From a virus, in the IMG/VR virus record IMGVR_UViG_3300024272_000034: a stretch of DNA of 64,000 bases; one strand, given 5' to 3'. Positions within the stretch are counted from its first letter, which is position 1; each line of letters opens with the position of its first letter. Positions 34,001-61,287 of this stretch are shown one piece after another. The notes under the pieces were generated by a model that made no database searches, was not told the DNA's origin, and saw nothing but the letters and a program-made list of their open reading frames with translations. Position numbers and translations under genes: made by a program.

Positions 34001-34238
34001 TGATATTGCTATTGGTTCTTCCAATAGTTTTTCTAATTTAAGTTTAGAAAAAACTCAAGGTGGAGTACCAATTATAAGTAGTAACTATGGTAATGATAAA
34101 GATATTTGTAATATTTATTTTTATACTAAAAATTATAAAGATAATAGCATTATTAATGGTATTCTTATTGGTGAATTTTTTGATGATAAAAATTTAAGTA
34201 GTAATTATAATATTACTGTTCATTATATTGATTCGTGA
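28086..34238 (+). CDS. giant (2050 aa) host-recognition/tail protein with C-terminal BspA-type leucine-rich repeats
   Basis: RBS AAAGGAGAAA upstream. Ten track ORF fragments are in one frame joined only by TAG, ending at TGA 34236-34238. The C-terminal region (IPKSIQTIATKAFGF...INKAAFGYSNLEYFEF...IGEQAFRGCNL...LKQIGQHAF) matches the BspA-like LRR pattern. Confidence 0.65.
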
Positions 34239-37519: not shown

Positions 37520-38689
37520 ATGGCAGCTGATGATAAAATATTAGCAACGTAGATTAGTACAAATTCTTCTTCCTGGTATCAAAGATTAAGAGCTATTTAG
37601 GCAAATAATAAAACAGGTATAGGCGGGTCTGCTTTATAGCAGACCGCCGACCCTGGTATCACTTCAGGAACGAAGATGACAGCAACACATATTAATAATT
37701 TTATTAATGCTTTAACAGCTTTAAAATCAAATGTATTTTTAGCTTATGCGGATTGGACTAATTATACTCCTTCTACTGTTTCTAGTGGTGGAAAAGCTAA
37801 TGCTTCTACTACATAGACTAAAATTAATAATATGTTAACATCACTAGAAAGTATATGTAGTAATTGTTAGACATATAGTACAAATAGTTATTCTAATACT
37901 TGTTCAAATAATGCTACAACTAGTTATTCAACCTATTCGGAAAGTATTGATAAATATAATTATTCTAATACATGTAAAACTACTTATAATTCCACAGAAT
38001 CTACAAACTCTACTTGGAGTGAAAGCTGTAAAACAACTTCTAATAGTACTAATAGCTATTGTTCTGATGCTAATTGTAGCGCTTATAGCGAGAATGAAAC
38101 TTGTGCAGAATTTTATGTTGGTAATAGCACTTATTCTACAGATAGCACTAGCTCAAATTCTACTTATGGAGTTGGAGATTCTACTTAGGCAACAGATGCT
38201 ACTTCTGTTTGTGCTACTTTATCAACTTATAATGATGAAATATCTTATAGTACAGATTGTAGTGATGGTTGTTGGGATTGTACTTTTCATTCTTATTGTC
38301 CTGCAGCTGAAGTAGCTACTTATAGCGTCGGAGAGTGTTCAACTAATGCTACTAATTCTGAAAATTCAACAGAAGGAGTTTGTAGCACTTGTAGTACTAA
38401 TTCTACTGATTTTTATTGTAATGAAAACTCTTGTACTGAACATACAAATAGAGGTACATATTCAAATCATTCACAATGTAGTACTTGTGGAAAAAACAGT
38501 ACATATAATGATACTTGTCAAACTTGTGAGACTGATTCAACCACATCAAATACAACTTATACTTAGTCAAATTCTACATATACTAACACTAATGATGGTT
38601 ATAGTACATATTCAAAAAAAGCTACATATGGAACATATACTAATACAAGTGGTAATTCAACATATTAGACTTATACGGTAAAAAATTAA
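37520..38689 (+). CDS. Cys/Ser/Thr/Asn/Tyr-rich protein (389 aa, 22 Cys, 9 in-frame TAG); candidate rSAM substrate
   Basis: RBS AAAGGAGGAA upstream. Codon-by-codon translation gives an ordinary ~100-aa N-terminal region, then ~290 aa of low-complexity S/T/N/Y-rich sequence with CxxC and Cx2-6C spacings (SICSNCQTY, SYCSDANCSAY, DCSDGCWDCTFHSYCP, CSTCSTNS, CNENSCTEH, CSTCGKNS, CQTCETDS). It ends at TAA 38687-38689. Confidence 0.6.
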
Positions 38690-38719
38690 TTGAAATGAGA
38701 TAAAGGAGAAAATATTTTA

Positions 38720-40078
38720 ATGTTACAAGATAGAGAAACAATTATTTTATATACTACAGCAGTATGTAATTTAAATTGTACTTATTGTTTTATTGATAAA
38801 AATCCAAGTTTAAAAAAGATAGATCAATGGCTTGATGATAGTTTTTTAAAAACTCCAGATTATTATTTTGAATATGCAAAAAAAGCCGTTTTACAAGAAA
38901 AACTAAAAGAAGTATAGATTTGGGGTGGAGAACCTTTTTTGGGTATGCATAGAGCCTATGCAACAATAGATAAATTTATTAATTATTTTCCAAATTTAAA
39001 AAATTTTATGACTTCTACAAATTTTGTATCTCATTGTTTTTTTGAAGAATTTTATGGACTTCTTGATATTTTTAGAAAGCATCCAAATAGAAATTTTACA
39101 TATAGTTTATAGTTATCATTAGATGGTGTAAAGGAAATAAATGATATTAATAGAGGTAATGGAGTTACTGATCGTTTTATTATTAATTTTGAAAAATTTG
39201 TTAAAGAATTACAAACTTTATTACCAAACAATTTAACATTAAAAATGCATTTAAAGCCCACTATTGATACAAATTCTTTGAAAAAATTATAGACTAAAGA
39301 ACAAGTTTTTGAACAATTTATCTTTTTTGAAAGCTTCAATGAAGTATATTTGAAATATAATAAAAAAAATAATTTACTATTTTCACTTCCAATTCCTAAT
39401 ACAGCTTGCCCATCTCCTCATACTCAAGAAGATGGAATAATGTTTGCAAATTATTGTAAAATAACAAGAGAGCTTGAAAAAGAAAATAAAAATAATAAAA
39501 TTTTTAAATTTTATAATAATATTACAAGCTTTACTCCAAGAAGAAAAATTCAATATGACAAACTTTCATTATCAGGATATTGTCAAGGTCATTGTGGTAA
39601 TGGAAAAAGAGCTATTGGTCTTTTACCTAACAATATGGTTTCTTGTTGTCATAATGGTTTTGTTGATTTGCTAGCTGAATATAAAAAGAATGTATTAACA
39701 AATAGTGAACATATGGATAATGTTACTATTGAAAAAAGTTTATTTAAAAATAAACGTAATACTTTAATTTTCCCTTATGATAGTAAAGAATTTGAAATGT
39801 ATCAAAAACAATTAGAAGTTTTTTATCAAAATGATGATACTGCCAAAATTTCTAATTGTGCTTCTTTAATTAAATTATTGGCTGATTTTGAACAAATTGA
39901 TAAAAAATATCAAGATAAAAAAGAAGCTGTTAAAGGTGCTTATTTTATTTTTAATACTACATCATATTGTGTTAGAGATAATTTAGGTGTGACTGGAAGC
40001 ATCTATATGTATCCTGTTGGTTTAATTAAATTATTGCTAAATGGAGCTAGAGAATATATTGAGGAAGGATGTAATTAA
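38720..40078 (+). CDS. radical SAM enzyme with C-terminal Cys-rich (SPASM/twitch-like) region (452 aa, 3 TAG)
   Basis: CNLNCTYC (CxxxCxxC) near the N-terminus and GGEP in IWGGEPFL. C-terminal cluster CQGHCGNGKRA...SCCHNGF. Track ORFs 38720 and 39350 are in frame across TAG. Confidence 0.7.
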
Positions 40079-41467
40079 ATGGCAAAGTGTTTAAATTTTT
40101 AGGAAGAAAAAGATGTTATTTTATGGTCATTAATTAATGATACATTTGGAAGACTTTTTTCTAAAGAAAAAAAAGAAGATATTGAACATGATATGGGGTT
40201 AGAAATTTATATAACCCCTGAATGTAATTAGAATTGTTCTTATTGTTATTTATGTAAAAATGGTGATGAACTTTATCCTAAAGAATTAAGAAATCCTACA
40301 ATAATTTTAAATAATTTAAAAATTATGTTAGATTATTGTATTGATAATAATTGGAATCCTGGAAGATTTGATTTTTTTTCTGGAGAAATTTGGGATACTG
40401 ATTTAGGTTATAATGTTTTAAGCATTACAGAAGAAGCAATAGAAAGAGGTTTTCACCCTAGACTAATTGTAATTCCATCAAATTTTAGTTTTATTTTAAA
40501 TGAAGAAGCTAAAAATAGAGTTGAAAAATTTATGGAAAAATGTAGACAATTTAATATAAAGCCATGTTGGTCTTGTTCTAATGATGGTTTATTGTTAGAT
40601 TTAGAGACAAGACCATTTAATTCAGATGAATTAAATGCAAAAAAAGATACTGAAGATTATTATAAAAAATTATTTGAATTTTGTAAAAAATGGAATTTAG
40701 GTTTTCATCCAATGGTGGCAGCACACGGAATTGAAAAATGGTCAGAAAATTTTTTATGGTGGATGTCAGAATTAAAGAAATATAAATTTGAAAGAAATTC
40801 TTCAATAATGTTTTTAGAAGTTAGAAACGATGATTGGACAGATGATAAAATTTATCATTATTTAAAATATTTAAATACTAGTATTAATTATTTAAATGAT
40901 GAATGTATTAATTTAAATACATTGTCTTTTGAAGATTATGTTAGAAAAACTAATAAAAATATTAAATACAATTATACACCTGTTATTTTAGAAAAATCAA
41001 GTTTATAGCCTGGATGCACTATTCATAGATCTTTAGTTATTCGTTTAGGTGATTTAGCAATAGTTCCTTGTCATAGAACTTCTTATGAAGAATTTATTAT
41101 AGGACATTTTAAAGTAGAGAATAATAAAATTATAGGAGTTACAGCTAAAAATATTCAAATAATGAATTAGGTATGGCTAAATAATATGAGTGGTAATGCT
41201 AAATGCACTAATTGTCCTTATAGCAATTACTGTATGAAAGGATGTTATGGTTCTTAGTTTGAATCTACTGGAGAATTATTATATCCAATAGAATCAGTAT
41301 GCAATTTATATAAAGCAAGAGCAATATTTATTTTTTATAAATATTTAAAAATGGGTATTTATAGAGAAGATAATCCCGAGGATAAAAAATATTTTGATTT
41401 TATTCAATCAATTAAAGATACGAAGGAGTTTAAAAAATGGTACAAAATTGTTTAGGAATTGATTTAA
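40079..41467 (+). CDS. second radical SAM enzyme with C-terminal Cys cluster (462 aa, 5 TAG)
   Basis: Start overlaps the upstream stop (TAAATG). The rSAM motif is CN(TAG)NCSYC, i.e. CxxxCxxC if TAG is sense. C-terminal CTNCPYSNYCMKGCYGS resembles SPASM. Track ORF 40325..41008 is in frame. Confidence 0.65.
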
Positions 41468-42036
41468 TTAATATTTATGAAAATCTTATCATAAATGGAT
41501 TAAATGTAGAATTAGCAAAAGATATTGAAAAATATTTGATTTATTTTTTAGACAATAACACTAATGAAAATTAGTTATTATTATATAATTTATTAAATAT
41601 TTTAAAACGTCAATAGAATACATCAATTCTTCTAAATTTTTTAATTCAAGAAGTTGAATTAAAGTTATTAAGATTAAGTTTTTCTAATAATGATATAAAA
41701 AATAATAAAGATTGTTATAATATTTCATCTTGTCAAAAAAATGAATCTAAAGAAGAATTAAAGAAAATTTTAAAAGTAACTAATAAAGATTTATTCCCTC
41801 CAAAAGGGACTACAACTCGTATTATTAATAAAAGAAAAGAAGAAAATGAAGAACATGAATATGTTTTAGAGATAGATGATCAAGGTAATGTTTTAGAAAT
41901 TTTAGAACATTATATAACAAAAAATGATGCAGATTCTATTGATATATTAAATGATTCTCCTTTAAGCAAACTTAAAGAAAAATATCTTAAAGAAGATAAA
42001 GAAAATAATTCTTTAACAGAAAATGATTTAGAATAA
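41437..42036 (+). CDS. hypothetical protein (199 aa, 2 TAG) overlapping the rSAM gene end
   Basis: Frame +2 relative to the previous gene. Acidic C-terminal half. Function unknown. Confidence 0.45.
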
Positions 42037-42061
42037 TATTAATAATTTAAATATTTCTAAA

Positions 42062-43138
42062 ATGGGATTAGGAATTATGCGTCATAATTCTAATCAACAA
42101 TATACAAAACAACTAATAGAATATGCTTTAAATAATAAAATTAATTATTTTGAAGCTTGTGATTTCTATTTACAAAACGCTTGTGAAATACGTCTTGGGG
42201 ATGCTTTAAAATAGCATCCTCGGACTTCATATAAATTATGTGATAAACTTCCATTATCTACAATTCCTTATTTTATTCAAAAAAATAAAAATTGGAATTT
42301 AAATGATTATTTTAATAATCAATTAGCAAAATGTAGAACTGATTATTTTGATGTTTATTTGATTTAGGCTTTAGATGAACGTAATTTTAATTACTTGGAA
42401 AAATATCAAATTATTGATTTCTTTTTAAAACAAAAAGAACAAGGAAAAATTAAATTATTGGGTTTTTCTTTTCATGGAAAAGTTGATATTTTAAAAAAAT
42501 TATTAGAAATGAAATGTTGGGATATCGTTTAGTTTCAATTAAATTATTATGATTGGATTTTAGGTGAGGCGAAAGAATTATATTTTTTAACAAAAGAATA
42601 TGATTTACCTATTATTACAATGGGACCAACTAAAGGCGGATTATTAATAAATAATTTACCTAAAAAATCATTAGATAGATTAAAAGAAAACAATATTAAT
42701 CCAGTCTATTTATGTTATTCTTTTTTAGAAACTTTAGACAACGTTAAAATTATTTTATCAGGAGCAGAAACTTATGAAATGATTAAAGATAATTTAAATT
42801 ATTTTGAAAATGAATCTCATAAATTAACTCCAGAAGAGTGGTAGCATATTAAACAAAATATTCAAGATTATCAAGAATAGAGTTTAATTCAATGTACGGG
42901 ATGTCGTTATTGTGTTCAAAGATGTCCTGCTAATTTACCAATAGATAAAATTTTTAAAGAATATAATAATTTTATTCAATCTAAAGATTTATAGTCAAGA
43001 GAATTTTTATATTAGAATATTCATAGTTCTAACTCTACACAGAATTGTAAAAATTGTGGTCAATGTGTAAAAATTTGTCCGCAACATTTAAATATTCCAG
43101 AAATTTTTCATAAACAAATTTTCCCAGTAAGGAGATGA
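42062..43138 (+). CDS. aldo/keto reductase-fold oxidoreductase fused to a 2x[4Fe-4S] ferredoxin domain (358 aa, 7 TAG)
   Basis: N-terminal AKR-like pattern (LGIMR...INYFEACDFY...LGDALK...KLLGFSFHG...ITMGPTKGGLL). C-terminal CTGCRYCVQRCP and CKNCGQCVKICP. Ends at TGA 43136-43138. Confidence 0.65.
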
Positions 43139-43553: not shown

Positions 43554-43563
43554 AATAAATATA

Positions 43564-43604
43564 GGGGAACCTTTAGTATAATCTAAAGGTTCCCCTTATT
43601 TTTG
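43564..43604 (+). terminator. rho-independent terminator closing the cassette
   Basis: GGGGAACCTTTAG-TATAAT-CTAAAGGTTCCCC hairpin followed by TTATTTTTG. Confidence 0.75.
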
Positions 43605-43620
43605 TTTATATTAAATTCTA

Positions 43621-44314
43621 TTATAAGTAAGCCAACGTTCACGAATTAAATCATGAGATTTTTTGGGAAAATATAATACTTCATCATTTTCAAAAGTTAA
43701 ATGGTCAGTATCAATAATCTTAATTTCACTTAAATTAATCAATAAACTTGTGCTAAAAATAAAAATTGCGGATGTTGGTTCAATGGAGTTATTGCTTTTT
43801 CAAAAGATGAGCGCAATGACTAACCATCAAACATTGTTCCATTTTTTAAATGATAACATAAACAACGTTTTACAATGTTAATATAATTAACTTGACTTGA
43901 GCGTATTCTTCTTTCACCTTCCGCAGTTTTAATTACCAAACTATCTTCTCTTATCTCTTTTTTAATTATATTAAATAATTCAAACAATTCTTCTTTTTCT
44001 ATTGGTTTTAAAAAATAATGATCTGCATGCACTTTATAAGCAGGATAAGCGAGAGAAGGATCTTCTCCAATAAAAATAAAATAACTATTTGGGTCTATTT
44101 TATCCATGCGATGACTTAACTCATATAGATTTTCTGATGAATCAGTGTCCATAATATAAACATCAAAACTTGCAGGAACAACAAGTAAATCTTCTGATTT
44201 ATCAAAAATTGATACTTTTGCCACAGACTTAGATTCTATTAAATATTCTTGAATCATCTCACGCAATTCATTTAAATATGTTTTGTTGTCATCATAAATA
44301 GCAATAGAGAGCAT
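43621..44314 (-). pseudogene. LytTR-family response regulator (receiver + LytTR DNA-binding domain), interrupted by an apparent -1 frameshift
   Basis: Track ORF 43820..44314 encodes the receiver-like N-terminus and the start of LytTR (VIKTAEGERRIRSSQVNYINIVKRCLCYHLKNGTMFDG). The domain continues through a TAG. It ends in another frame (LINLSEIKIIDTDHLTFENDEVLYFPKKSHDLIRERWLTYNRI, stop at 43621-43623). The shift falls in a T-rich tract (CAATTTTTATTTTTAGC). The cause could be a true frameshift, programmed slippage or a sequencing error. Confidence 0.5.
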
Positions 44315-44501: not shown

Positions 44502-44626
44502 GGATGAAAAATCAGACAAAAAATGTGTGAGTGTTTCTTGTTTAAAAATCTGAAACAATTTTTATATAGTAATGGAAGGGTAAGAGAAAAATAAAAAAAA
44601 TGAATAAATACCTTGGAGGTGAATAT

Positions 44627-45103
44627 ATGAATTATCAATATAATCAGTAGCAGGTGAGTCCACCGCAGAATTAGACGACTCAGCAGTATTCTTACCAACG
44701 ACAAGTTCCTTATACTTCTGGAACTTGGAATGCGAGAGTCAGACCGGTTTCTTCAATTGAAGAAGTAAGAGCATCTTCAATTGATTTTGATGGCTCAATT
44801 TTTTATTTCCCAGATGTTGCTAATAAAAAAATCTATACTAAATTTATTAATTTAGATGGCTCTGTGGCAATTAATGTATATGAGTTAAAAGAAATGCCAA
44901 CAGGTTAGGCAGCAGATTCATCTTACATTACAAGAGAAGAATTTGAAAACGTAATTATGTAGTTAAAAATGATGTATAATAATTCTTCTGCGCCTTCTAC
45001 TCCAATAGAAGAATAGCAATAGGTATAGTAGTAGATGAATAGTAATTAGTTTGCGGCACCACCCGCACAATAGCAACATAATGTTTCGCCATTACAATTT
45101 TAA
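44627..45103 (+). CDS. hypothetical protein (158 aa) with Gln-rich C-terminus encoded by mixed CAA and TAG codons
   Basis: RBS GGAGGTGAA upstream. The C-terminus reads TAG CAA TAG GTA TAG TAG TAG ATG ... GCA CAA TAG CAA, which is QQQVQQQ...AQQQ if TAG=Gln. Ends at TAA 45101-45103. Confidence 0.55.
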
Positions 45104-45116
45104 GGAGGTATGAAGA

Positions 45117-45362
45117 ATGGCACAAGTTGATCCGAGACAATTAATAGCTATGATTAGAAATGGTCAAAATCCTCAACAACTTATGTTAAGTGTTTTAGAG
45201 ACGATGCAAGATACTCCTTTTGGAGCCAATTTATTGAATCTCGCTCGCAATGGTTAGACTGCGGAGATTGAAAAAATTGCTCGGAATATCACATCTCAAA
45301 GAGGTATGGATTATGATAAAGAGTTTAATGCCTTTAAACAATAGTTTTTTGGCTTTAAATAA
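45117..45362 (+). CDS. small hypothetical protein (81 aa, 2 TAG)
   Basis: RBS AAGGAGGTATGAAGA upstream. Ends at TAA 45360-45362. Confidence 0.45.
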
Positions 45363-45399
45363 ATAAAATATTTTTTTTAATTAAAGGAGGGTTTCTTTT

Positions 45400-46194
45400 A
45401 TGTTTAATTCTAATGGTTACAGTTTGGCAGATATCGTTGCCGCAACAGGTGGCGGTAGAGAGAATTGCGGCGGCTTCGGCGGCTGGGGCGGAGATGGATG
45501 GTGGATTATCCTCTTATTCTTGCTCTGGGGTAACAACGGCTGGGGCGGCAATCAAGGTGGACGTGGAACAGTTCGTGAAGAAATTGCTTATGGTTTTGAT
45601 ATGAACGGTTTAGAAAATAGCGTCCGTGGTGTTCAGCAAGGTATTTGTGATGGTTTCTATGCCATGAATACTGGTATGTTAAATGGATTTAGTAACATTC
45701 AAAATACTCTATGTCAAGGTTTCTCTGGTATCAATCAAGGTACAGCTCAGTAGACATTTGATTTATCTACTCAGTTACATGGTATGGCAGCTGATAATGC
45801 GGCTTGTTGCTGCGAAACTCAGCGCGCTATTGAAAGAGGATTTGCTGAAACCAACTATAACATGGCAACTCAAGCTTGCGATACTCGTAGAGCAATTGCT
45901 GATAGCACTCGTGATATTATTGACAGTAATAACGCAGGTGTTCGTTCTATTTTAGATTTCTTAACTCAGGATAAGATTGCTACTCTTACCGCAGAAAATC
46001 AGAGTCTAAAATTCGCAGCTTCTCAGGCAGCTCAGAACGCTTTCATTGCAGCTAATCAGGAAGCTCAAACCGCAGAACTTATTCGCAGACTTGATACCCC
46101 ATGTCCTATTCCCGCTTATGTAGTTCCTAATCCTAATTGTTGCTATCCATCTTATGGATATGGGTATGGCAACACTGGATGCTGCGGTGGTTAA
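45400..46194 (+). CDS. Gly/Trp/Cys-rich protein with one hydrophobic segment (264 aa, 1 TAG)
   Basis: RBS AAAGGAGGG upstream. Track ORFs 45400 and 45784 are in frame across the TAG at 45751. N-terminus GGFGGWGGDGWWIILLFLLWGNNGWGGNQGG. Cys clusters CCCETQ and NPNCCYPSYGYGYGNTGCCGG. Confidence 0.55.
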
Positions 46195-46219
46195 TTAACA
46201 AAGGAGGTAAAAAATCTGT

Positions 46220-46639
46220 ATGGAAATTATTGCTAATGCTTTATAGACAGTTCCAGCAAATCAGACTGTTTATTTCACAGATACCGCCGTATGCGGTGGC
46301 CCATCTATGACTCATAGAGCTGGTAGTGGTTTAATTACTCTTAGAGGAATTACTAATCAATGTAGAGCAAGATTCCGCATCACTTTTGGAGCAAATATTG
46401 CTGTTCCAACAGGAGAAACAGTTGGACCAATTTCATTGGCTATTGCGATAGAGGGTGAACCTCTTCAAGCTACTACAATGATTGAAACACCAGCGGCTGT
46501 TGAAGAGTTCTCAAATGTTTCAAGAACTACCTTTATTGATGTTCCTCGTGGATGTTGTGTAAGTGTAAGTGTAAGAAATGTAAGTGATATTCCAGTAAAT
46601 GTACAAAACGCAAACTTAATTGTTGAACGTGTTGCTTAA
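46220..46639 (+). CDS. BclA C-terminal-domain-like (C1q/TNF-like) protein (139 aa, 1 TAG)
   Basis: RBS AAGGAGGTAAAAAA upstream. The C-terminus ...NVQNANLIVERVA and the internal RFRITFGANI...GPISLAIAIEGEPL pattern resemble the BclA exosporium CTD, which ends ...IIIEKVA. The assignment is by motif recall only. Confidence 0.4.
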
Positions 46640-46657
46640 TGAAAGGAGGTCTTATAA

Positions 46658-47305
46658 ATGGAGAAAAGATTAGAACATATGAAAGAATCTTTAATGGCTT
46701 GCGTTGAAAGTCAATTAACTCATTTAGATACAGTTGATACTAAAGAATTAGGTGAAGCCATTGATATGATTAAAGACCTTGAAGAAGCAATCTATTATTG
46801 TACTATTACAAAAGCAATGAAGGAACAGGATAAAGGAGAAAAAGAATCTCATAAATATTATCCAGTAATGTATAATAGAGATATGGATAGAGATATGGGA
46901 AAAATGTATTATGAAAACCCAAATTATATGGGTGGTAATGATACAAAACGTCAATATTCATCTGGAAATGGAGGAGGCAACTCCTCCTCCATGAGTAATT
47001 CTTCTGGAAGCGGAGGAGGTAATTCATCCTCTGGAAATACTGGTTCAAAACAATATAGTGAAACAGAATATAATTTAATGCGCGACCAGCGTGAAGGACG
47101 TAGTCCTCAGTCGCGCCGCATGTATATGGAATCAAAAGAAATGCATTCAGATAAAGCAACTCAAATGCGTGAATTAGAAACTTATATGCAAGAGTTAACT
47201 CAAGATGTAGTTGAAATGGTTGAAGGTGCAACTGTTGAAGAAAAGCAGTATTTAAGTAAACGAGTAGCAGCTCTTGCAAACAAATTGGCTCAATTAAATG
47301 ATTAA
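46658..47305 (+). CDS. hypothetical protein with Gly/Ser/Asn low-complexity core (215 aa, no TAG)
   Basis: RBS AAAGGAGGTC upstream. A clean ORF. The core repeats NGGGNSSSMSNSSGSGGGNSSSGN. Confidence 0.5.
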   Translation: MEKRLEHMKESLMACVESQLTHLDTVDTKELGEAIDMIKDLEEAIYYCTITKAMKEQDKGEKESHKYYPVMYNRDMDRDMGKMYYENPNYMGGNDTKRQYSSGNGGGNSSSMSNSSGSGGGNSSSGNTGSKQYSETEYNLMRDQREGRSPQSRRMYMESKEMHSDKATQMRELETYMQELTQDVVEMVEGATVEEKQYLSKRVAALANKLAQLND

Positions 47306-47561
47306 CATTAATGGTGAACAATGGAGAGTGTTTTTAACCTCTCCATTTCACCCTGCTTTAAAACGCAGTGATGGTGCTTATACTCTAGGATGCTGTGATG
47401 ATGTAACAAAAACAATTTATATAAGTAATGATGTAAGTGATAAATATTTAAAAAAAGTTTTATGCCACGAACTCACTCACGCCGCAATGTTTAGCTACAA
47501 CGTAGATTTGACTTATGAGCAAGAGGAAGTTCTCGCTGATATTATAGCAACATATGGATAG
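47298..47561 (+). CDS. small HExxH-motif protein, putative minimal zinc metallopeptidase (87 aa)
   Basis: LCHELTHAAMF contains HExxH. Overlaps the previous gene by 8 nt. Confidence 0.4.
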   Translation: MININGEQWRVFLTSPFHPALKRSDGAYTLGCCDDVTKTIYISNDVSDKYLKKVLCHELTHAAMFSYNVDLTYEQEEVLADIIATYG

Positions 47562-47630
47562 GAAATTATTCATATGGCAAATCTTCTCTTTAAGAGGTTA
47601 AAAGATGAAAGAGAAGAAGAAAGAAAAAAT

Positions 47631-47668
47631 GGGAGTATCTAATAATTTAGATACTCCCATTTTTTTTG
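47631..47668. terminator. bidirectional rho-independent terminator between the convergent modules
   Basis: GGGAGTATCT-AATAATTT-AGATACTCCC hairpin with an A run upstream and a T run downstream. Confidence 0.7.
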
Positions 47669-48106
47669 TTATATATTACAATCTCGTACTTCTAACTTCA
47701 TCGCACTTTCATAATAATTTTTAGCTTGACCATTGCCGCCCAAAGAAGTATATAATTTATAAAATTCAGTTAATTGGTCATACTAGTCGGGAGTCATAAA
47801 TCCTTGTCTAATAAATCCTTTGCATAATTGAACTAAACGGAAACGATAAGAAGAAATAATTAAATTCATGTGATTCTTTTCTACTTGACCCACATTATAG
47901 ATATAAGACCTTAATTCTTCAAGCTCCTATTGAATTGGTTCAATTTTACTGTCAATTGTTTCATTCAATTTGTCAGTCTCTTGGTCTGCTAAAAGCTTTT
48001 TATAATTTTTCATTTGACTATGCATATATTTACAAAAAGCTAAAGCACCAGCAGAAATTAAACCAAAAATAATTTCAATGAAATGTTCAGTTAAAAAAGC
48101 TAACAT
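47669..48106 (-). CDS. membrane protein with N-terminal TM helix (145 aa, 2 in-frame TAG)
   Basis: The reverse-strand frame is open through two TAG codons. N-terminal hydrophobic FIEIIFGLISAGALAF. It was missing from the ORF track because TAG splits it. Confidence 0.45.
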
Positions 48107-48172
48107 TATAACAAATCCCCTTTCTTAAAATTTTTTCTCACACTATATCAATTTTAAGTAAGGGGATTTTAT

Positions 48173-48664
48173 TTATTCAGACCAATCAAATGATTTTGCC
48201 TAAGAGTTTAGATACCAGTGACCAATACATATTGCGTCACTTTCATCTTCTGTAGCTTGTTTATTATAAAGCGTTTTTATTAATAACTAAGCTTCTTTTT
48301 TCTACTCTGGACGAGTTCTACTTTTTATACCGATTTTACTTTTCCATACTGTAGCTAATACAGCTTCAACTGGTATATCTAATTCTACAATCAATTCATA
48401 AATAACACCAAATACTTCTGCTAATGTTTTAAAGGTTTGAACATTTCCTGTTACATTAGATTGAAGTTGTATATCTTCCATTATAACTTTATTAATAGAA
48501 TAAGTATCAATTAATTGATGAACATTTTTTCTAATATTAAGCAATCTATCTCCTAAATCGGATTGATTACAAGTAAAATGTCCATAATCAATTAATTGAT
48601 TATCTTCAAATATAGCATATCCAGTTATTTTAGAAGACTAATCTAAAGATAAGATTCTGCTCAT
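48173..48664 (-). CDS. ruvC: RuvC-family Holliday junction resolvase (163 aa, 4 in-frame TAG)
   Basis: N-terminus MSRILSLD(TAG)SSKITGYAIFED matches the RuvC/YqgF catalytic motif. C-terminal DESDAICIGHWY matches the acidic motif. ATGA start/stop overlap with dut. Confidence 0.6.
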
Positions 48665-49356
48665 ACTGATTCAAAAACATCTGCTTTTAATCCAAGAGAA
48701 TTAAAAACATCAAGTAATTTTTCATCAATTTTAATTTCGTTATTTAAATTAATTGATTGTAAAGAAGTAGAACCAAATCCGCCTGTTCGTAAGCCAATAG
48801 CTACATCATCTTCAATGGTATAATAAGGTTTAATAATTCCTTGACCAATAATATCTCCTCGTTTTAATTGAATATCAAATGGAGATAAATTAATTAATTG
48901 AAAGAAAATTTCACCTTCATTATCAGGATTATTATAATAATCAGCGTCAATAATACCAACTCCATTAGCAAGAATAAGCCAATATTTTAAAGGAGTAGAA
49001 GACCGCACGCTTAATTCAAGATAAGTATTTGGAAGTAATTCACATTTCATTCCAGTAGAAACTAAAGAAGGTTTAATTTTTGATGCTTTAGTAACAGCGG
49101 CAACATCTTCAAGAGTATAAGGTTTACTCATCTTTTGCGCAAGCTCATATTCAGCCTTCTTCTTTTCTTCTGAGTCAATTACATTCTAATGTAATTGGAA
49201 TAGTTCATATCTACCAAGCCAATTCAATTCTTCAGAACAAGATGGAATTATAATATCTTCAGCTACAACAAAATCATATCCAGCGCTCTGTTCTGTTTTT
49301 CTAATTGGTAAAGGTAAATCAATATCATTAAATCTACTTACTTTTTCAAATTTCAT
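48661..49356 (-). CDS. dut: dUTPase-family protein (231 aa) with an ~80-aa insert carrying one in-frame TAG
   Basis: Track ORF 48661..49131 carries motifs 2-5 (GIIDADYYNN, RTGGFGST). The same frame continues upstream through one TAG to ATG 49354-49356, adding motif 1 (SAGYDF). Confidence 0.6.
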
Positions 49357-49601
49357 TATTCTACCTCATAATTAATATTAACAAAACTTATCGGGTCTTT
49401 TTCATCATTGAAATGTTTGTTTAAAGTAACTTTATACCAACTATCAATAACTGCACCTTTAGATTTTCTTTCTTTAAATTCACTAGAATATTTTGCTAAT
49501 GAAAATTCAGTAGCATTCTTAGCTTCATCAATAATTTCTTTTACTTCATTTTCATTATCTACTCTATATACTTCAATTGTACTTACAAGATATTTTGACA
49601 T
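49356..49601 (-). CDS. hypothetical protein (81 aa)
   Basis: RBS GAGGT upstream. TAATG overlap with dut. Confidence 0.4.
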   Translation of the reverse strand: MSKYLVSTIEVYRVDNENEVKEIIDEAKNATEFSLAKYSSEFKERKSKGAVIDSWYKVTLNKHFNDEKDPISFVNINYEVE

Positions 49602-49602
49602 T

Positions 49603-49863
49603 TTAATTTACCTCAATATTAATTTTTTTAGTATTATAATTTTTTACATTATACATTTGAATATCTTCAATAAAACCTTCAAGATATCCTTCATTACCAT
49701 ATAGGTGAATATTGTATATATCATATGTATAACAACTACTAACAATTACTTCTGCTAAATTATCAATAGTTGTTGAAGCTATTTCTCGCTTACCATTATC
49801 ATCATAAATAAATATATACTAATCAGTATTAAATAAATTAACTGAACTAACAATATAACTCAT
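49603..49863 (-). CDS. hypothetical protein (86 aa, 1 in-frame TAG)
   Basis: Reverse frame is open from ATG 49861-49863 through one TAG to TAA. Confidence 0.35.
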
Positions 49864-49864
49864 T

Positions 49865-50215
49865 TTATCCTCCATATGAAACCATTAAACCTTCACAATC
49901 AAATAAGCACATACATAAATTTTCATCTTCATTTGTCCGCACCCAAATTTCAATTGTATCAGAAGCTTCCATATAATCAACAGTAATAATCTTACCAATA
50001 TCTAAAGCGCAAGTAAGAACTGCTTTTCCTTTATTTTCAAAATCCGATTCGTTTGCTTTTGGATAGAAAATAGTATAATAAGAAATTTCTTTACATAAAA
50101 GCATTAAATTTGAATAATTTTTCATTTTATCATTAATTAATTCAATATAAGGGTCTATATTATCTGCTATTGGAAGCTATGAAACAATAGATTTATTTAA
50201 ATCATATAGATTCAT
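49865..50215 (-). CDS. hypothetical protein (~116 aa with upstream extension through one TAG; start uncertain, alternative start at 50125)
   Basis: Track ORF 49865..50125. The frame stays open upstream through a TAG to ATG 50213-50215. Confidence 0.35.
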
Positions 50216-50299
50216 AGAAATATTTCCATAATCTTTAGATTCTTTTTTTAAATTACACTTCATTATTTATCTCCTTTTTTATTTTATATAATAATTATA

Positions 50300-50782
50300 T
50301 CATATTTTTTTATTTTTGTCAAGATAAATAATACGTTGATTGCGGCTTCCTCTCATAGGAAGTGTAATGTCTCTTTCAGCTTCAATATAAGGTCCATCAA
50401 TTAAACAAGTAATTAATTCTAAAATTTCTTTTATATTTGGATTATGAGGTAAATCATCGTAAGTATACCCTGTCCATAAATAAATTTCTGTATCTGGTAA
50501 TTTTTCTTTAACAGTTTTTATTACCAATAAAGTCAAAAAAGTATTTTCAGGACATAAAGGTTCTCCACCCAAAATACTTAAAGAACGCTTAATACCATTA
50601 GCTTGAAGAGCTTCAATTATTTCATTAATTACATCAGTAGTAAATTCTAGTCCTCCGTCATAATCCCAAGTTTCGGGATTATGACAGCCAAGACAATGAT
50701 GCGGACATCCTTGAGTATAGAAAGAAACTGATACACCAGTTGCCGCAGAAAAATCATTTTTAATTAAACCTGCATATCGCAT
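50300..50782 (-). CDS. nrdG: anaerobic ribonucleotide reductase activating protein (160 aa)
   Basis: GCPHHCLGCHNPETW (CxxxCxxC radical-SAM cluster) after the GVSVSFYTQ motif. Adjacent to nrdD. No TAG. Confidence 0.75.
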   Translation of the reverse strand: MRYAGLIKNDFSAATGVSVSFYTQGCPHHCLGCHNPETWDYDGGLEFTTDVINEIIEALQANGIKRSLSILGGEPLCPENTFLTLLVIKTVKEKLPDTEIYLWTGYTYDDLPHNPNIKEILELITCLIDGPYIEAERDITLPMRGSRNQRIIYLDKNKKI

Positions 50783-51411
50783 TATTCTTCCTCCTCTAAG
50801 TCTAAATCATGAACATCATCTGGATTAGCTACTTCGTAATAAAATATACATCTACAACTGGGATGATATGGTGGGAGATTAACATCTTCATCTGGCGGAT
50901 ATTCTCCGCCTTCACACATATCACATCCACTTTCAATTACTAATAAAGTAGCATTAATAGGTCTTTTATTTTTCTTTACTGCATTTTCTACATTTTTAGT
51001 TTCTGTATTTAAAATTCTTTCAAATTTATAAACTAAATTATCTCTTATTTCTTTATAAGTTTTTTCTTTTAAAATATCTTGTCTTGTCTCTTCCCAAATT
51101 AAAGACAATCTATCTTGAATTGTTTTTCCATCTTCTTTATAAGTTAAATCAAAGATATTTTTGATATTAAATTCTTCTACTTCTTCATATAATTTTTCTA
51201 TATATTTACTTGTAATAAGATATGTTTCAGTTAATGATTCATAAAATAAATCTTCAATTTTTTTATATGCTTTATCCCAAAGTTTAATATTAAAATTATT
51301 TGAATATTCTCTGACAGCTTTTAAAGATTTATTTATAATTTTTTCAAAATATTTATCTTTAGATTCGTCAATTAAATCTTCTAATTTAAGTATTTCTTTT
51401 CTGATACTCAT
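50782..51411 (-). CDS. hypothetical protein with C-terminal zinc-ribbon-like Cys motif (209 aa)
   Basis: Clean ORF between nrdD and nrdG. The C-terminus has CDMCEGG...HPSCRC. Confidence 0.45.
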   Translation of the reverse strand: MSIRKEILKLEDLIDESKDKYFEKIINKSLKAVREYSNNFNIKLWDKAYKKIEDLFYESLTETYLITSKYIEKLYEEVEEFNIKNIFDLTYKEDGKTIQDRLSLIWEETRQDILKEKTYKEIRDNLVYKFERILNTETKNVENAVKKNKRPINATLLVIESGCDMCEGGEYPPDEDVNLPPYHPSCRCIFYYEVANPDDVHDLDLEEEE

Positions 51412-51416
51412 AACAA

Positions 51417-53708
51417 TTATCCATGTTTAACCCTTCGCTCTACCTCATCTTGTTTACCAAGGTTAAAAGCAGTTTTATAATTACCAGTTAAATAACCAGT
51501 AACTCTACGCAATTGTTGAATTTCTTTACTTCCGCATTCTGGACATTCATCATTAAATTCATCAGTATATCCGCATTTAAGACAAGTATCATTTGGAACA
51601 TTTACTGCGAAATAAGGAATATCTTTATCCATAGCATAATTTACTAAAATTTCTAATGCCTCAAGATTATTTTTAATTCCACTATCCAATTCAACATAAG
51701 TAATACATCCAGCAGAAGAATAACAGGTTAATTGAGATTCAATATCAATTTTTTCAAATGGAGACATCTCTATCCACACAGGTACATGCATAGAATTAGT
51801 AAAGAATTCTTTATCGGAAACATTCTCAATTACACCATATTTATCTTTAAATTTCTTTAAAGCAGTATGACATAGGTTTTCCGCAGGTGAATAATAAACA
51901 CCAAAATTTAATTTATATTCATTTTTAAATTGAGCACAACGAGTTTTAAACAATTCTTCAATTCGTTTTGCTAATTCCATTCCTTCTGGAGTAGTATGAT
52001 TTTTTCCAATAAGAATTTGAAGCGTTTCAGCAAGACCTAATTGTCCAAGAGCAAGGGTACCATGCTTAAGAGCGGAACGTATTCCTTCTTCTGGAATATA
52101 TCCTGCCATAAGTCCATTTTCATACATAAACTTAGCAGAATCAGGAGATTGACTACAAATCCATTCAAATCTTTCAATAAGCATATCTTTAGCATCATAT
52201 ATTGCTTTATCAAGAATTTCCATAAAAATATCTACAAGTTCAGTAGTATATTTATATTTATCTGTAAATTGATTTTCCCACTCTTCTTTTGCTTCCATGG
52301 CTAATGTAGGAAGAATAATTGTTACAGGACAAATATTACCTCTACCATCTTTGAGTTGACCAAAACCATTAATATCCCAACCATTTGCTGTGCGGCATCC
52401 CATCGTTGAGAAATAAGTTCTTGGGTCATTAATATCATATCCAGCATTACCAGACCAATCAACATTTGCGTAATTGGGATATAGTCTTTGAGCGGTTGAT
52501 TTTAAAGCCAATTGGAATAAATCATAATTGGGGTCTCCAGGTTTACGATTTACACCTTTCATACATTGAAAGATTCCACAAGGGAAAATAGATGTTTTAT
52601 GTAAAGCTCCAATACCTTCAATGGATACTTCAAGCAAAGCTTTAGTCACCATTCTACCTTCTGGTAAAGTACAAGTACCATAATTAATAGAAGTAAATGG
52701 CAACTGATTGCCTGAACGAGATTGAAGTGTATTAAGATTATGATACATTCCTTCTACGGCTTGATGTGTTTCTTTTTTTGTTTCAAATAGAGCTGCTTGA
52801 CTTAAATATTTATCAAGATTAACAATATTACTAAAAGTGAAATCTTCATATTTAAGATTAAATTCTTTTAAATATTTTTCTTTATGATTTTCAACCCAAT
52901 TATCTAATTCTTCATTTGGCATATCCAAAAGAGACAGAGCTAAAAATTCGTCAGTATGTTTTACATATTCTAATACATAATGTTTAAAAAATGATTTGCG
53001 TATATAAGGCACCATGGTCCAGTCAATATGTGTCGCAGAAACACCACCAAATTGTTGTAAACTTTGTAATTGGAAAATAACCGCTACAAGCTGAAATGCT
53101 GTATTTACAGAACCTGCGGGACGCACATCTGTTTGTCTGGTATTAAATCCTTTAGCAAGCAAATCATCAAAAGGAATAGATAAGCAATTATGTGAACCAA
53201 CATAATAACTATTTAAGTCATGAATATAAATACGATTATTTAAATGATTTTCTCTTGCTTTTGGTGATACAATAAAATCTAATGCTAATTGTTTCGTGAC
53301 CACATCTCCAGCTTCACCTGTGCGGCCTCCAAAAGATGCTTCATCTACATTAGCATTTTGGTTTTGGATATTTGTAGCATTTAATTTTTCTTTAACTGCG
53401 TCAATAAAATCATTTTCATAATGTCTAGCAACTTCTTTTTTATATCTATAACGAATATATTCTCTTGCTACATCACTGCGTTCAGAACGCATTAAATATT
53501 CTTCAACTTTATCTTGAACTTTTTCAACAGTAAATGGTTTATCTGAATTATGTACAGCATCTTTATAAATAGCTTCCGCTATATCAGCAGCTGTATCTGT
53601 TTCATAAAGTTTTCCATCAACTTCAAGAAAAGCTTTATTTATTGCGGTAATAATTTTACCTTTATTAAAAGGAACAAGTGTTCCATCTCTTTTATAAATT
53701 TGTACCAT
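51417..53708 (-). CDS. nrdD: anaerobic ribonucleoside-triphosphate reductase (763 aa)
   Basis: ATP-cone-like N-terminus. C-terminal zinc ribbon CLKCGYTDEFNDECPECGS. Glycyl-radical motif RRVTGYL. No TAG. Confidence 0.85.
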   Translation of the reverse strand: MVQIYKRDGTLVPFNKGKIITAINKAFLEVDGKLYETDTAADIAEAIYKDAVHNSDKPFTVEKVQDKVEEYLMRSERSDVAREYIRYRYKKEVARHYENDFIDAVKEKLNATNIQNQNANVDEASFGGRTGEAGDVVTKQLALDFIVSPKARENHLNNRIYIHDLNSYYVGSHNCLSIPFDDLLAKGFNTRQTDVRPAGSVNTAFQLVAVIFQLQSLQQFGGVSATHIDWTMVPYIRKSFFKHYVLEYVKHTDEFLALSLLDMPNEELDNWVENHKEKYLKEFNLKYEDFTFSNIVNLDKYLSQAALFETKKETHQAVEGMYHNLNTLQSRSGNQLPFTSINYGTCTLPEGRMVTKALLEVSIEGIGALHKTSIFPCGIFQCMKGVNRKPGDPNYDLFQLALKSTAQRLYPNYANVDWSGNAGYDINDPRTYFSTMGCRTANGWDINGFGQLKDGRGNICPVTIILPTLAMEAKEEWENQFTDKYKYTTELVDIFMEILDKAIYDAKDMLIERFEWICSQSPDSAKFMYENGLMAGYIPEEGIRSALKHGTLALGQLGLAETLQILIGKNHTTPEGMELAKRIEELFKTRCAQFKNEYKLNFGVYYSPAENLCHTALKKFKDKYGVIENVSDKEFFTNSMHVPVWIEMSPFEKIDIESQLTCYSSAGCITYVELDSGIKNNLEALEILVNYAMDKDIPYFAVNVPNDTCLKCGYTDEFNDECPECGSKEIQQLRRVTGYLTGNYKTAFNLGKQDEVERRVKHG

Positions 53709-53778
53709 TAATAAATCCTCCGAAAATATTAATTTGGGGCGACCCTATTATATTTAATAGTTGTTTTTTTATGGTTAA

Positions 53779-54333
53779 TTACTTCTGCCCAATGATGCTT
53801 AAAATTGTCTTTACGTTCTTCATTAAGTCTAATGTATTATCATTTTGTAATTCAATATATTCAAAAGGTAAATCTGAAAAATCTTTTTTATCAGTTCCAT
53901 AACGTCTAACAATTTCATCAACATTTGGTTCATCTTCTCTATTTAATTGTCTTAAAAGTCTTTGTTTATCAGAAGCTTTTATATAAAAAATAGTTACATC
54001 AATTTGAGGGTCTGATAGTAAAAATTCAACACGAGATGGGTCAAATACTCCTATATTTATAACATCTGAACGTAAACATTCATAATCAGTTCCATAAAAC
54101 CAATCATTAAAAGTTGCCATTTCTACTAATTCATTATTAATAGCTTTTTGCGCAAATTGCTCTGGTGTTATAAAATAGTAATTAATACCTTCAATTTCAT
54201 TATCTCTACGAGGACGTGTAGTATAACTAATAATAGAATGAACATCATTAGTATTTTCTAAAATCATTCTTAATAATGTATCTTTACCAGAACCAGATTG
54301 CCCAATTAAAGCAATTATTTTATACTTCTTCAT
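53779..54333 (-). CDS. gmk: guanylate kinase-like nucleoside monophosphate kinase (184 aa)
   Basis: P-loop GQSGSGKDTL and YTTRPRRDNEIEGINYYF (TTRxPRxGExxGxDYxF pattern). Confidence 0.6.
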   Translation of the reverse strand: MKKYKIIALIGQSGSGKDTLLRMILENTNDVHSIISYTTRPRRDNEIEGINYYFITPEQFAQKAINNELVEMATFNDWFYGTDYECLRSDVINIGVFDPSRVEFLLSDPQIDVTIFYIKASDKQRLLRQLNREDEPNVDEIVRRYGTDKKDFSDLPFEYIELQNDNTLDLMKNVKTILSIIGQK

Positions 54334-54559
54334 TTATGTCAATAGCCTCATCTTCATATTCATATTTTAATTGATTAGGTAATTCATTACGATAAAAAGT
54401 ATATTTCCTTTTACAGGTAGGACAAAAATAAACATACTGTTCAGGATAAGTACATAAAACTTTACCAGTACTTTTTATTTCTTCATTACAATCTTCACAA
54501 TAAAAGCTATCTATATAGATAGCTTTTACATATCGTCTTTTAATTTTCATCTTCTTCAA
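54320..54559 (-). CDS. small zinc-ribbon protein (79 aa)
   Basis: CEDCNEE...CPTCKRKY. Overlaps its neighbours. Confidence 0.4.
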   Translation of the reverse strand: MKKMKIKRRYVKAIYIDSFYCEDCNEEIKSTGKVLCTYPEQYVYFCPTCKRKYTFYRNELPNQLKYEYEDEAIDINEEV

Positions 54560-57047: not shown

Positions 57048-58229
57048 CGTTTATTGGACTATATTTTTCATAATGACTTACTAAGAGCATTTTACTTCAG
57101 TCATTACTAGAACATCTTTCAGACGGTGCTTATCTCCGCCTTACATAAATAGTCTCTACACATTTAATCTTATTTTTCTATTTGTTTCCAATAATAGCCT
57201 TTATATAAAGTTCCATTTTTAATCGCTTTATCTAATTGAGTGTGTCCTTTCATTCCTAAGAATTGTAAGACTGCGGTTTTAGCATTAAATATTTGAATTA
57301 AATTGTAATTTTCATCATACATTTCAATTCGTTTTCCATTTAATGCTTGATTACCACTTTTACCATACATACCATTTTTTTCGCCAGCGGTTTTACCTTT
57401 ACTATTTACAGACATTTTCTACTTAGACTCTTCTGTATGTTTTTTACCATACATTCCATTATTAGAACCTTTTGTTTTTTCACTCATTTTTTGTTTAAAC
57501 TCTTCAGTTCTATAAGGAGAGTTGTCTCTTTCAAATTCTGCCCAATAAGATAAAAATGCTTTAGTTTTTTCACTATGGTATTTTCCATACATTCCATTAT
57601 TCTTACCACGATTTACTTCACTTAATTTTCGGCACAAAACTTCTTTTTCTTCTGGTGTATATCCTGCGGTAGTGTTTCCTCCACAACCGCCCTCATGAAT
57701 ATTATAAAACAATGGATTTGATGTGGCATTATATAAGGCAATAAATTGTTTTTCTTTTTCACTATTTTCTAAATCATTTTTAGAAACAAATAAAATGGAC
57801 TTTGTAAAACAGTCTTTTCCATATTTGGCAATTTCTTTTTTCAATTCTTTTCCGCTGCCTAAATATGAATCATCTAATTCTCCATAATGTTTTCCGATAT
57901 ATTTCATACCATTTATATTATTAGTAGTTAAATAAATATAATGTTGTTTCATTTAAACAACCCCCTTTCATATATATTTAACTTTTAGAATTAGACAATG
58001 ACCTGACTTTGTCCAAGATTTTTAGCACGGTATTCCCAATCTAACCTTTTTTAGGTCATAGGGTCTCTTAGTCAGTTGATTCGCATTTATATAACATAAA
58101 TCTTATTTCGCTGATACCGTTAGCCTGCGGTTACTCGTCTCGCCGGTCGGATGACCGGGCCGCCGCAGACACCCATTAAGCAATGGTTAATGTTCTTTTT
58201 TTACAACTGCCCAATATCAATATTAGACT
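57048..58229 (-). mobile_element. group I intron in dnaE carrying a GIY-YIG homing endonuclease gene
   Basis: Exon 1 ends ...NKERAELP at 58230 and exon 2 starts at 57047. Joining them restores the conserved DnaE motif. The intron follows a U and ends in G. Its 5' part (58090-58170) is GC-rich and structured. The read-through tail after exon 1 (SLILILGSCKKRTLTIA) is unconserved. Confidence 0.7.
57170..57952 (-). CDS. GIY-YIG homing endonuclease with four NUMOD3 (NGMYGK) repeats (260 aa) containing one in-frame TAG
   Basis: The N-terminus YIYLTTNNINGMKYIGKH is the GIY-YIG motif. Track ORFs 57419..57952 and 57170..57415 are in one frame separated only by a TAG (TEESK-TAG-KMSVNSKGK). The C-terminus has an HTH-like IKNGTLYKGYYW. 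RBS GGGGG upstream. Confidence 0.7.
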
Positions 58230-59600: not shown

Positions 59601-59662
59601 ATATATTCACTCTCCATTTTTATTTTTTCATATAAATATTATACCATATTTTATATGAAAAA

Positions 59663-59857
59663 TCAAGTTGTATATTCTTGAAGTACAGAAGCTAATGTAC
59701 GCCTAAAATCTTCATTTCTTTGAACTCGTAATTTTAAATCATCCATTTCAGCTTTTTCTTTATCTAATTGTTTTGCCATAGCTAATAATGAATGAGCGGC
59801 TGCTTCTAAATCGCGAGCAGCTTGTGTTAAGTTTTTTGAAGTTTCGTTTTCATCCAT
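59663..59857 (-). CDS. small hypothetical coiled-coil protein (64 aa)
   Basis: Clean ORF. Confidence 0.35.
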   Translation of the reverse strand: MDENETSKNLTQAARDLEAAAHSLLAMAKQLDKEKAEMDDLKLRVQRNEDFRRTLASVLQEYTT

Positions 59858-59860
59858 AGA

Positions 59861-61051: not shown

Positions 61052-61053
61052 TT

Positions 61054-61287
61054 TTAATCCTCTTTATTATTTACATGAGCATGTACTAATTGTTCTAAAC
61101 AATTATAAAAGTGCATTTTTTGAGTTTCTGCTTGATTATGTTCTTGTTCATAATCATGACTACGCTCTGCTTTTAATCTAGCAACTTCGTCACAGAGAAT
61201 AGCATATCTAAAATAAATGCTATCAAAACCAAAATCTAATCTATCTTTATATAAATTTTCTAATGCTTTTTCCTCTATTGTAATCAT
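61054..61287 (-). CDS. small hypothetical protein (77 aa)
   Basis: Clean ORF with a 4-nt overlap to its neighbour. Confidence 0.35.
   Translation of the reverse strand: MITIEEKALENLYKDRLDFGFDSIYFRYAILCDEVARLKAERSHDYEQEHNQAETQKMHFYNCLEQLVHAHVNNKED

Follow-up and report, generated by a model that had tools for sequence, protein, structure and literature searches.

The assignment of TAG to glutamine and its concentration in late genes have been described for alternatively coded gut phages (bioRxiv 10.1101/2021.08.26.457843), and peptide proof of the TAG-to-Gln assignment has been obtained by metaproteomics, in crAss-like phages only (PMC9523058). The Lak megaphages and the phAss-1 group, with genomes of about 550 kb and 136 kb, respectively, encode their own suppressor tRNAs (bioRxiv 10.1101/356790; PMC10607447). 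A release factor 2 helper is present in only a few of the published recoded phage genomes. The recoding of gut-phage late genes from TAG to Gln is already established by bioinformatics and metaproteomics, and the locus presented here is a clear but ordinary example of it that introduces no new principle.

The DNA analysed here, referred to as the window, is a 64,000-nucleotide stretch of the IMG/VR virus record IMGVR_UViG_3300024272_000034. Our findings point toward a large uncultured gut phage of low G+C content, in which UAG is read as Gln (code 15) while TAA and TGA act as stops, and toward the gene at 44627-45103 (the 44627 gene) as an ordinary late gene with a Gln-rich product; we assign this reading a probability of about 0.92. 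The coordinates of the features discussed below are collected in Table 1.

Table 1. Features of the window and of related loci. Positions are those of the window unless a locus label (L) precedes them.
Feature	Position	Strand	Remark
Late block: virion, tail and radical-SAM genes, holin, unit headed by the 44627 gene	153-47642	+	234 TAGs in 15,099 codons
Three giant late ORFs, visible only with TAG as sense	2841-12761, 12867-18230, 28086-34238	+	3306, 1787 and 2050 aa; 78, 28 and 25 TAGs
Gene group between tail genes and holin	37520-43138	+	starts with a 389-aa protein
Radical-SAM-like genes	38720-40078, 40079-41467	+	after the 389-aa protein; followed by a 199-aa ORF
Aldo/keto-reductase fused to 4Fe-4S dicluster domain	42023-43138	+	
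Terminator-like hairpins bracketing the six-gene unit	43563-43596, 47622-47667		the first directly after the holin
191-aa ORF, weak response-regulator receiver-domain match (Pfam, sub-threshold)	43739-44314	-	divergent from the 44627 gene
Best promoter-like site of the region, extended -10	44378-44350	-	belongs to the 191-aa ORF
Weak sigma-70-like promoter match, 9/12	44541-44570	+	57 nt upstream of the start; consensus match only
Shine-Dalgarno-like GGAGG	44615-44619	+	7 nt upstream of ATG 44627
44627 gene	44627-45103	+	ATG 44627, TAA 45101-45103; 158 sense codons
In-frame TAG starts of the 44627 gene	44648, 44672, 44906, 44960, 45014, 45020, 45026, 45029, 45032, 45047, 45071	+	codons 8, 16, 94, 112, 130, 132, 134, 135, 136, 141, 149
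TAG codons 8 and 16	44648-44674	+	in Q-rich N-terminal region
TAG codon 94	44906-44908	+	CAG in the 75%-identical relative L083
TAG codon 112	44960-44962	+	in conserved helix (..VIxQLK..)
Cluster TAG CAA TAG GTA TAG TAG TAG	45014-45034	+	codons 130-136, read QQQVQQQ
TAG codons 141 (45047) and 149 (45071)	45047-45073	+	in the tail; 141 is CAA in L084/L086
Conserved C-terminus PLQF, then TAA stop	45089-45103	+	beyond all 11 TAGs
Six-gene unit headed by the 44627 gene	44627-47642	+	G+C 33-35% vs about 25-29% around
Genes downstream of the 44627 gene	45117-47642	+	264-aa Gly/Trp/Cys-rich protein with hydrophobic segment (phrog_16490); 139-aa protein (phrog_20016); 215-aa Gly/Ser-rich protein; IrrE/SprT-like zinc-metalloprotease (HELTH)
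Replication/nucleotide-metabolism block	47669-63786	-	11 TAGs in 5,152 codons; split PolIII-alpha/YorL-like polymerase, NrdD, Dda-like helicase, RecJ-like exonuclease, guanylate kinase
Presumed RuvC-like ORF	48173-48664	-	4 TAGs; read from sequence
Presumed dUTPase-like ORF	48661-49356	-	1 TAG; read from sequence
Split polymerase and intervening ORF	54540-56969, 57170-57952, 58176-59600	-	
543-aa ORF of the same phage	L382 8386-10017		11 TAGs; about 81-83 kb, window-equivalent
Group I intron (Rfam RF00028)	L383 8369-8700		90.7 bits
CTA-anticodon tRNAs of related contigs	L393 4314-4404; L419 826-899; L422 842-915; L424 1711-1781; L428 1013-1083; L430 1781-1854; L441 7219-7308; L460 3008-3098; L461 2027-2100		
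RAGATH-33 (Rfam)	L470 3698-3826; L471 3426-3554		above gathering threshold

Eleven of the codons of the 44627 gene are in-frame TAGs. An earlier note on this DNA had quoted a codon string from the 3' end of the gene, which is found in the window exactly as given, and had counted five TAGs within nine codons; the count is right and the cluster is even tighter, with all five lying within seven codons (130-136). The same note had spoken of a poly-Gln tail in which CAA and TAG codons alternate. Such alternation occurs as TAG-CAA-TAG and as CAA-TAG-CAA and is otherwise overstated, and the tail, which reads EEQQQVQQQMNSNQFAAPPAQQQHNVSPLQF with TAG as Gln, is Gln-rich (10 Gln among the last 31 residues) but not poly-Gln, a mild exaggeration. 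As to the 5' end, a start at the ATG of 44627 is favoured over the ATG at 44600 because the homologues begin with MNY.

From its N- to its C-terminus, the predicted protein has a Q/P/Y-rich stretch, a conserved core (about residues 37-119) and a tail rich in Q that ends in PLQF. The family, with 818 database relatives, comprises uncharacterised phage proteins of 110-160 aa, whose invariant core reads ..RPVSSIEEVRAS.IDFDGS.FYFPD.ANK.IYTK..DG....YELKE...YITR.EF...I.QLK.. and whose tail is variable and P/Q-rich, nearly always ending in Phe followed by the stop. In the AlphaFold model a small alpha/beta core is flanked by two disordered ends, residues 123-151 of the tail (pLDDT below 50) being predicted as disordered; the mean pLDDT of 56 is too poor, and the model is therefore unfit for a fold search. 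Searches of Pfam and PHROGs for a function gave sub-threshold matches only, a PDB profile search returned no match, and the GenBank homologues are all annotated as hypothetical.

ORFs of 80 aa or more cover 51% of the window under the standard code and 95% when TAG is taken as sense. Recoding of the other two stops was rejected: TGA as sense gives 54% coverage, which is no gain, and TAA as sense yields overlapping spurious ORFs only, in DNA of 28% G+C. Both triplets are kept as stops: each gene stops at a TAA or TGA located where the homologues have their C-terminus.

Under table 11 the frame of the 44627 gene breaks after seven codons, and a suppressor tRNA was not found in 130 kb of this phage, two observations that would suit TAG being a normal stop and the long frame being a pseudogene, non-coding DNA or an assembly or sequencing artefact. 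The distribution of stops argues strongly against this view. The frame holds 11 TAGs, no TGA and the terminal TAA only, against 8 and 15 TAA/TGA triplets in the two alternative frames; this pattern is not due to chance, since a frame free of both TAA and TGA was obtained in only 10 of 200,000 shuffles of the gene body. About 30 neighbouring genes are likewise interrupted by TAG alone, including the ORF of 3306 aa with its 78 TAGs. Across the late genes chosen, frame 0 carries 234 TAGs and, by construction, no TAA or TGA, and frames 1 and 2 are full of the latter. Additionally, contigs from independent samples that are 96% identical in protein bear the same TAGs, and the sequence is therefore not an assembly artefact. 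The phage itself is present in IMG metagenomes 3300022661, 3300023371, 3300024268-70 and 3300018878, and the 96% relative in SRR29277944 and SRR29277953.

Comparison with relatives leads in the same direction. After the first TAG, the 44627 frame shows a dN/dS of 0.15 against the 96%-identical contig L081 and of 0.07 against the 75%-identical L083, values consistent with purifying selection acting on the frame 3' of the TAGs; the tail appears less constrained (dN/dS of 0.35 against L081). All indels that separate the gene from its near relatives are multiples of three, and the 818 homologues share both the conserved core and the C-terminus. In this regard, the C-terminal Phe directly precedes the stop in 57 of 59 distinct IMG/VR homologues, and it is likewise the last residue in 104 of the 120 database homologues listed; because this conserved residue lies past every one of the 11 TAGs, all of them need to be read through. 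Termination at the first TAG, the case that the earlier note had set against its own claim, is excluded, as it would leave a peptide of seven residues with the conserved core and the Phe downstream under purifying selection. Programmed leaky readthrough, in which a single stop follows a complete ORF and precedes an extension domain, was also rejected: the TAGs number 11, start at codon 8 and fall in part inside the conserved core. Taken together, these comparisons argue for translation of TAG in the 44627 gene and make a normal stop at these positions vanishingly improbable.

The identity of the residue inserted was addressed through the codons and residues that relatives carry at the same positions. 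The earlier note had proposed to look for CAA or CAG opposite the TAGs in related phages, and the predicted outcome was obtained in near relatives. The TAG at 44960 is CAA in the 96%-identical contigs L081 and L082 and in L084, and the converse swap is also seen, several CAA and CAG codons of the window being TAG in L083; at codon 8 the homologues bear TAG (17) or CAA/CAG (19). Over 146 pairs of homologues with an amino-acid identity of at least 70%, the codon opposite TAG is CAA (84) or CAG (74) in 158 of 235 cases (67%), while the next commonest codons reach at most 12 occurrences (GAA/GAG 11, TAT 12). In the whole family, Gln accounts for 31.6% of the residues aligned to TAG against a background of 7%, Lys is depleted (3.5% versus 5.4%), and Glu and Tyr are minor. 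The column of codon 112 holds Gln in at least 90% of the aligned family members and in 6 of 9 standard-code relatives.

Standard-code relatives, defined as those with equal coding density under tables 11 and 15 (about a dozen in the first batch and 68 loci overall), provide a further comparison. At two TAG sites of neighbouring genes, residue 66 of the holin and residue 9 of the gene at 46220, Gln is found in 10 of 10 such relatives in each case, and in well-conserved contexts the count for Gln is 27 of 53, against a background of 5%. The near relatives of the 44627 gene are themselves recoded, since their database proteins fail to translate under table 11. Against distant homologues the alignment of the tail is unreliable, with P, E and K often standing opposite the TAGs. 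Therefore, given that the tail is poorly conserved and aligns poorly, the firmest Gln calls are those based on the TAGs of the core, the near relatives and the neighbouring genes rather than on the Q-run, and Gln in the tail would follow from the near relatives together with consistency with the rest of the genome.

A sense codon for a residue other than Gln, such as pyrrolysine, Glu (e.g., from an un-amidated Glu-tRNA of the Gln type), Lys, Tyr, Leu, Ser or Trp, was weighed against these data. Some positions of the tail align most often with E or K, and ARAGORN tags the CUA tRNAs of relatives as 'Pyl', although by convention only. Three of the seven distinct suppressor tRNAs of relatives are 90-91 nt long and have an additional arm or insert following the anticodon stem, and sequence similarity was not decisive as to isoacceptor class for any of them, giving no firm class. 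U1 mispaired with position 72, together with G73, is present in four of the seven; in E. coli these are identity features of the Gln type. The codon interchange cited above, the depletion of Lys and the conserved sites of standard-code relatives, which are Q and not E, K or Y, render another residue highly improbable. Pyrrolysine in particular was rejected, as UAG makes up 1.55% of late-gene codons, occurs in nearly all late genes and aligns with Gln, and the annotated ORFs of the regions examined include no pyl gene. The reading of TAG as Gln is thus borne out by the CAA/CAG interchange with near relatives and by Gln at conserved sites of standard-code relatives, and we hold with high confidence that, at the level of sequence, the residue at TAG behaves evolutionarily as Gln.

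The genes of the window fall into two blocks of opposite orientation, and the GC skew switches sign at their junction. The gene set chosen holds 245 in-frame TAGs in total. In the plus-strand block TAG represents 234 of 627 Gln-type codons (37%), and in the minus-strand block 11 of 174 (6%), with none in the polymerase, NrdD, helicase, RecJ and Gmk genes. Most of the recoding lies in the block of structural, tail and lysis genes, and very little of it in the replication block. With TAG at 11 of its 23 Gln codons (48%), the 44627 gene is typical of the late block. Its TAG density, 7% of codons against 1.55% in the block, is high mainly because the protein is Gln-rich, the TAG share itself being block-typical, and the QQQVQQQ run is accounted for in the same way, by Gln-richness combined with the block-wide share. 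About half of the Gln codons of the gene would have drifted from CAG or CAA to TAG, which from CAG takes a single C-to-T change.

Some genes of the minus-strand block, within 47669-50263, 57170-57952 and 61284-61643, do contain internal TAGs, among them two that we take to be RuvC-like and dUTPase-like from their sequence (Table 1). Recoding is therefore not strictly divided between early and late genes. Elsewhere in the same phage, an ORF of 543 aa with 11 TAGs lies in an otherwise TAG-poor early region; by eye it presumably encodes a cell-wall amidase or endolysin and, if so, it would match published reports that lysis genes are preferentially recoded.

Other observations concern the gene content of the two blocks. 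The polymerase of the minus-strand block is split into an N-terminal ORF of 474 aa and a C-terminal ORF of 809 aa, which match consecutive parts of one PHROG profile, and the ORF between them, with one TAG, resembles a GIY-YIG/NUMOD3 homing endonuclease. A group I intron is present in a related phage contig of 175 kb. Between the tail genes and the holin of the late block, a group of genes starts with a Ser/Thr/Asn/Cys-rich low-complexity protein and continues with the radical-SAM-like and aldo/keto-reductase genes of Table 1; it looks like a peptide- or protein-modification cassette.

The 44627 gene is the first of a unit of six genes, bracketed by terminator-like hairpins, that is kept in both standard-code and recoded relatives. 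This position, about 1 kb past the holin and at the head of its own transcription unit, raises the idea that the TAG density of the gene is functional in itself: 11 TAGs, three of them in a row, would make its yield a very steep function of suppression efficiency and so gate the unit to the latest phase of infection, the first gene having a lysis-timing or checkpoint role. Such a function would add to the reading of TAG as Gln and not replace it. Preferential recoding of lysis genes has been proposed (bioRxiv 10.1101/2021.08.26.457843), and in 49 recoded related loci the TAG share of the homologue exceeds that of its neighbours (median 0.36 versus 0.23, Wilcoxon p=3e-5, a p-value inflated because the loci are phylogenetically redundant). 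In the window, however, the share of the 44627 gene (0.48) is near the block average (0.37) and no outlier, its TAG count is accounted for by its 23 Gln codons, and several recoded relatives have only 0-2 TAGs in the homologue. We therefore regard a functional density as unlikely, and a still more specific form of it, in which the 44627 family is preferentially loaded with TAGs, including consecutive ones, as a suppression-gated switch that heads the six-gene unit near the holin, as slightly more doubtful again. If such a gate were true, the product would appear only at near-complete UAG decoding and, in a recoded lineage that infects Bacillota, would time the end of infection or serve as its checkpoint.

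Under the preferred reading, of TAG as Gln in an ordinary late gene, the course of infection may be pictured from the literature and from relatives. Early genes would be translated with the standard code of the host; a CUA-anticodon tRNA of the phage, which host enzymes would load with Gln, would then accumulate and permit the late genes that contain TAG to be made. With 11 TAGs to pass, three of them consecutive, no full-length 44627 product is expected before suppression becomes efficient.

Suppressor tRNAs are detectable in only 35-40% of recoded phages (bioRxiv 10.1101/2021.08.26.457843), and for that reason a missing one is not unusual here. No tRNA was detected in the window by ARAGORN or Rfam. 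The same phage was tiled at 100% nucleotide identity over 129.8 kb, from about -19.0 kb to about +110.8 kb in window coordinates, and ARAGORN gave no tRNA in this tile; the spike-in control was positive. Rfam likewise gave none in the tile, whose loci were all scanned apart from L384. A metagenome scan did not recover the same phage. A search for the GGQ motif in the window and loci L001-L387, with L388-L501 outside the search, gave no release factor. As a suppressor tRNA was not found in the 130 kb read, we infer the decoding mechanism of this phage from its relatives and from the literature.

Nine more distant related contigs do carry a tRNA with a CTA anticodon inside a tRNA array (Table 1), and three of these also bear recoded homologues of the 44627 gene (L070, L013 and L016). 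In the relatives, the arrays with suppressor tRNAs lie 3-9 kb upstream of an RNA-ligase gene. The part of the array fetched from the closest relatives (about 65% identity) includes Thr, Ser, Leu, Gly, Lys and Cys tRNAs and no CUA tRNA. By synteny, the tRNA array of the present phage should lie just beyond the last tile position; going by the relatives, it would follow the major-vault-like gene and include a tRNA(CUA). In the early region of the same phage, at about 101-132 kb in window-equivalent coordinates (L384 and L388), there are genes that we take to encode an RNA ligase, a Thg1-like tRNA-His guanylyltransferase, a macro domain and a major-vault-protein-like product, together with presumed NAD-salvage genes for nicotinamidase, NMN adenylyltransferase, nicotinate phosphoribosyltransferase and NAD synthetase; a gene set of this kind often adjoins phage tRNA arrays. 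As a separate observation, Rfam RAGATH-33 elements were found inside the arrays of the relatives of about 65% identity, the one in L471 immediately 3' of a tRNA-Leu(UAA).

With respect to the lineage, a 6-kb stretch centred on the region of the 44627 gene had no nucleotide match among GenBank phages, and an exact-protein look-up with two proteins encoded near the window ends gave no record. The best GenBank matches of the polymerase and RecJ-like proteins are SPbeta-group Bacillus phages and Enterococcus phages, at 35-40%, and the replication module of this phage is thus SPbeta-like on the basis of its protein matches. The core of the 44627 protein is also present in Clostridium perfringens phages and in a lemur-gut virus. 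Among species-representative genomes, the homologues of the 44627 gene lie on contigs of 60-176 kb that are binned mostly to Clostridia and other Bacillota, binning being weak evidence, and the related IMG/VR contigs measure 160-200 kb. The relatives are probably phages of Bacillota. A crAss-like origin, first suggested by the two-block layout and the giant ORFs, disagrees with the polymerase and RecJ matches and was rejected; PHROG matches typical of crAss-like phages were absent among the window ORFs.

These findings bear on how such DNA is to be translated. The window needs translation table 15, which pipelines already use for near-identical contigs; table 11 loses about half of the coding capacity, including the giant tail genes, the holin unit and the 44627 gene. 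Our results also place recoding in a lineage that has an SPbeta-like replication module, probably infects Bacillota and lacks any isolate or GenBank entry within 40% protein identity. In many Bacillota, Gln-tRNA is formed indirectly, by transamidation; if the host is one of these, the route by which the suppressor is charged would be less obvious than in the phages of Bacteroidota in which Gln has been demonstrated. In this regard, the tail of the 44627 protein would give a very diagnostic peptide, ...EEQQQVQQQMNSNQF..., for Gln insertion outside crAss-like phages, the predicted peptide QQQVQQQMNSNQF having Gln at every TAG; the last tryptic peptide of the protein spans 44 residues.

Compared with known systems, the E. 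coli tRNA-Gln(CUA) of the supE type likewise puts in Gln at UAG, in competition with RF1. In the present phage, however, 11 UAGs must be passed in one gene and 78 in another, and this comes down to reassignment, not leaky suppression. The Lak megaphages and the phAss-1 group (bioRxiv 10.1101/356790; PMC10607447) share TAG recoding and an origin in human or animal gut viromes, but differ in genome size, and the 6-kb query from the window showed no detectable nucleotide similarity to any GenBank phage record. Code-15 crAss-like phages (PMC7886860) resemble the present phage in reading TAG as Gln in late genes and in having two oppositely oriented blocks. They represent another lineage, however: the polymerase found here is of the split PolIII-alpha/YorL type, 40% identical to those of SPbeta and Enterococcus phages, and the 44627 homologues come from Clostridium perfringens phages and from MAG bins that carry a Bacillota label, and not from a Bacteroidota context. 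With respect to the code-15 gut phages of Borges et al., the present phage differs in that neither a suppressor tRNA nor an RF2 gene was seen in its readable 130 kb, although in those phages, too, a tRNA(CUA) is detectable in some genomes only. The likeness is otherwise close, comprising low G+C content, in-frame TAGs that align with Gln, close relatives that use the standard code, and recoding that favours structural and lysis genes, with little of it in replication genes. The phage fits among the alternatively coded gut phages of large size and low G+C content for which Firmicutes hosts are predicted (bioRxiv 10.1101/2021.08.26.457843).
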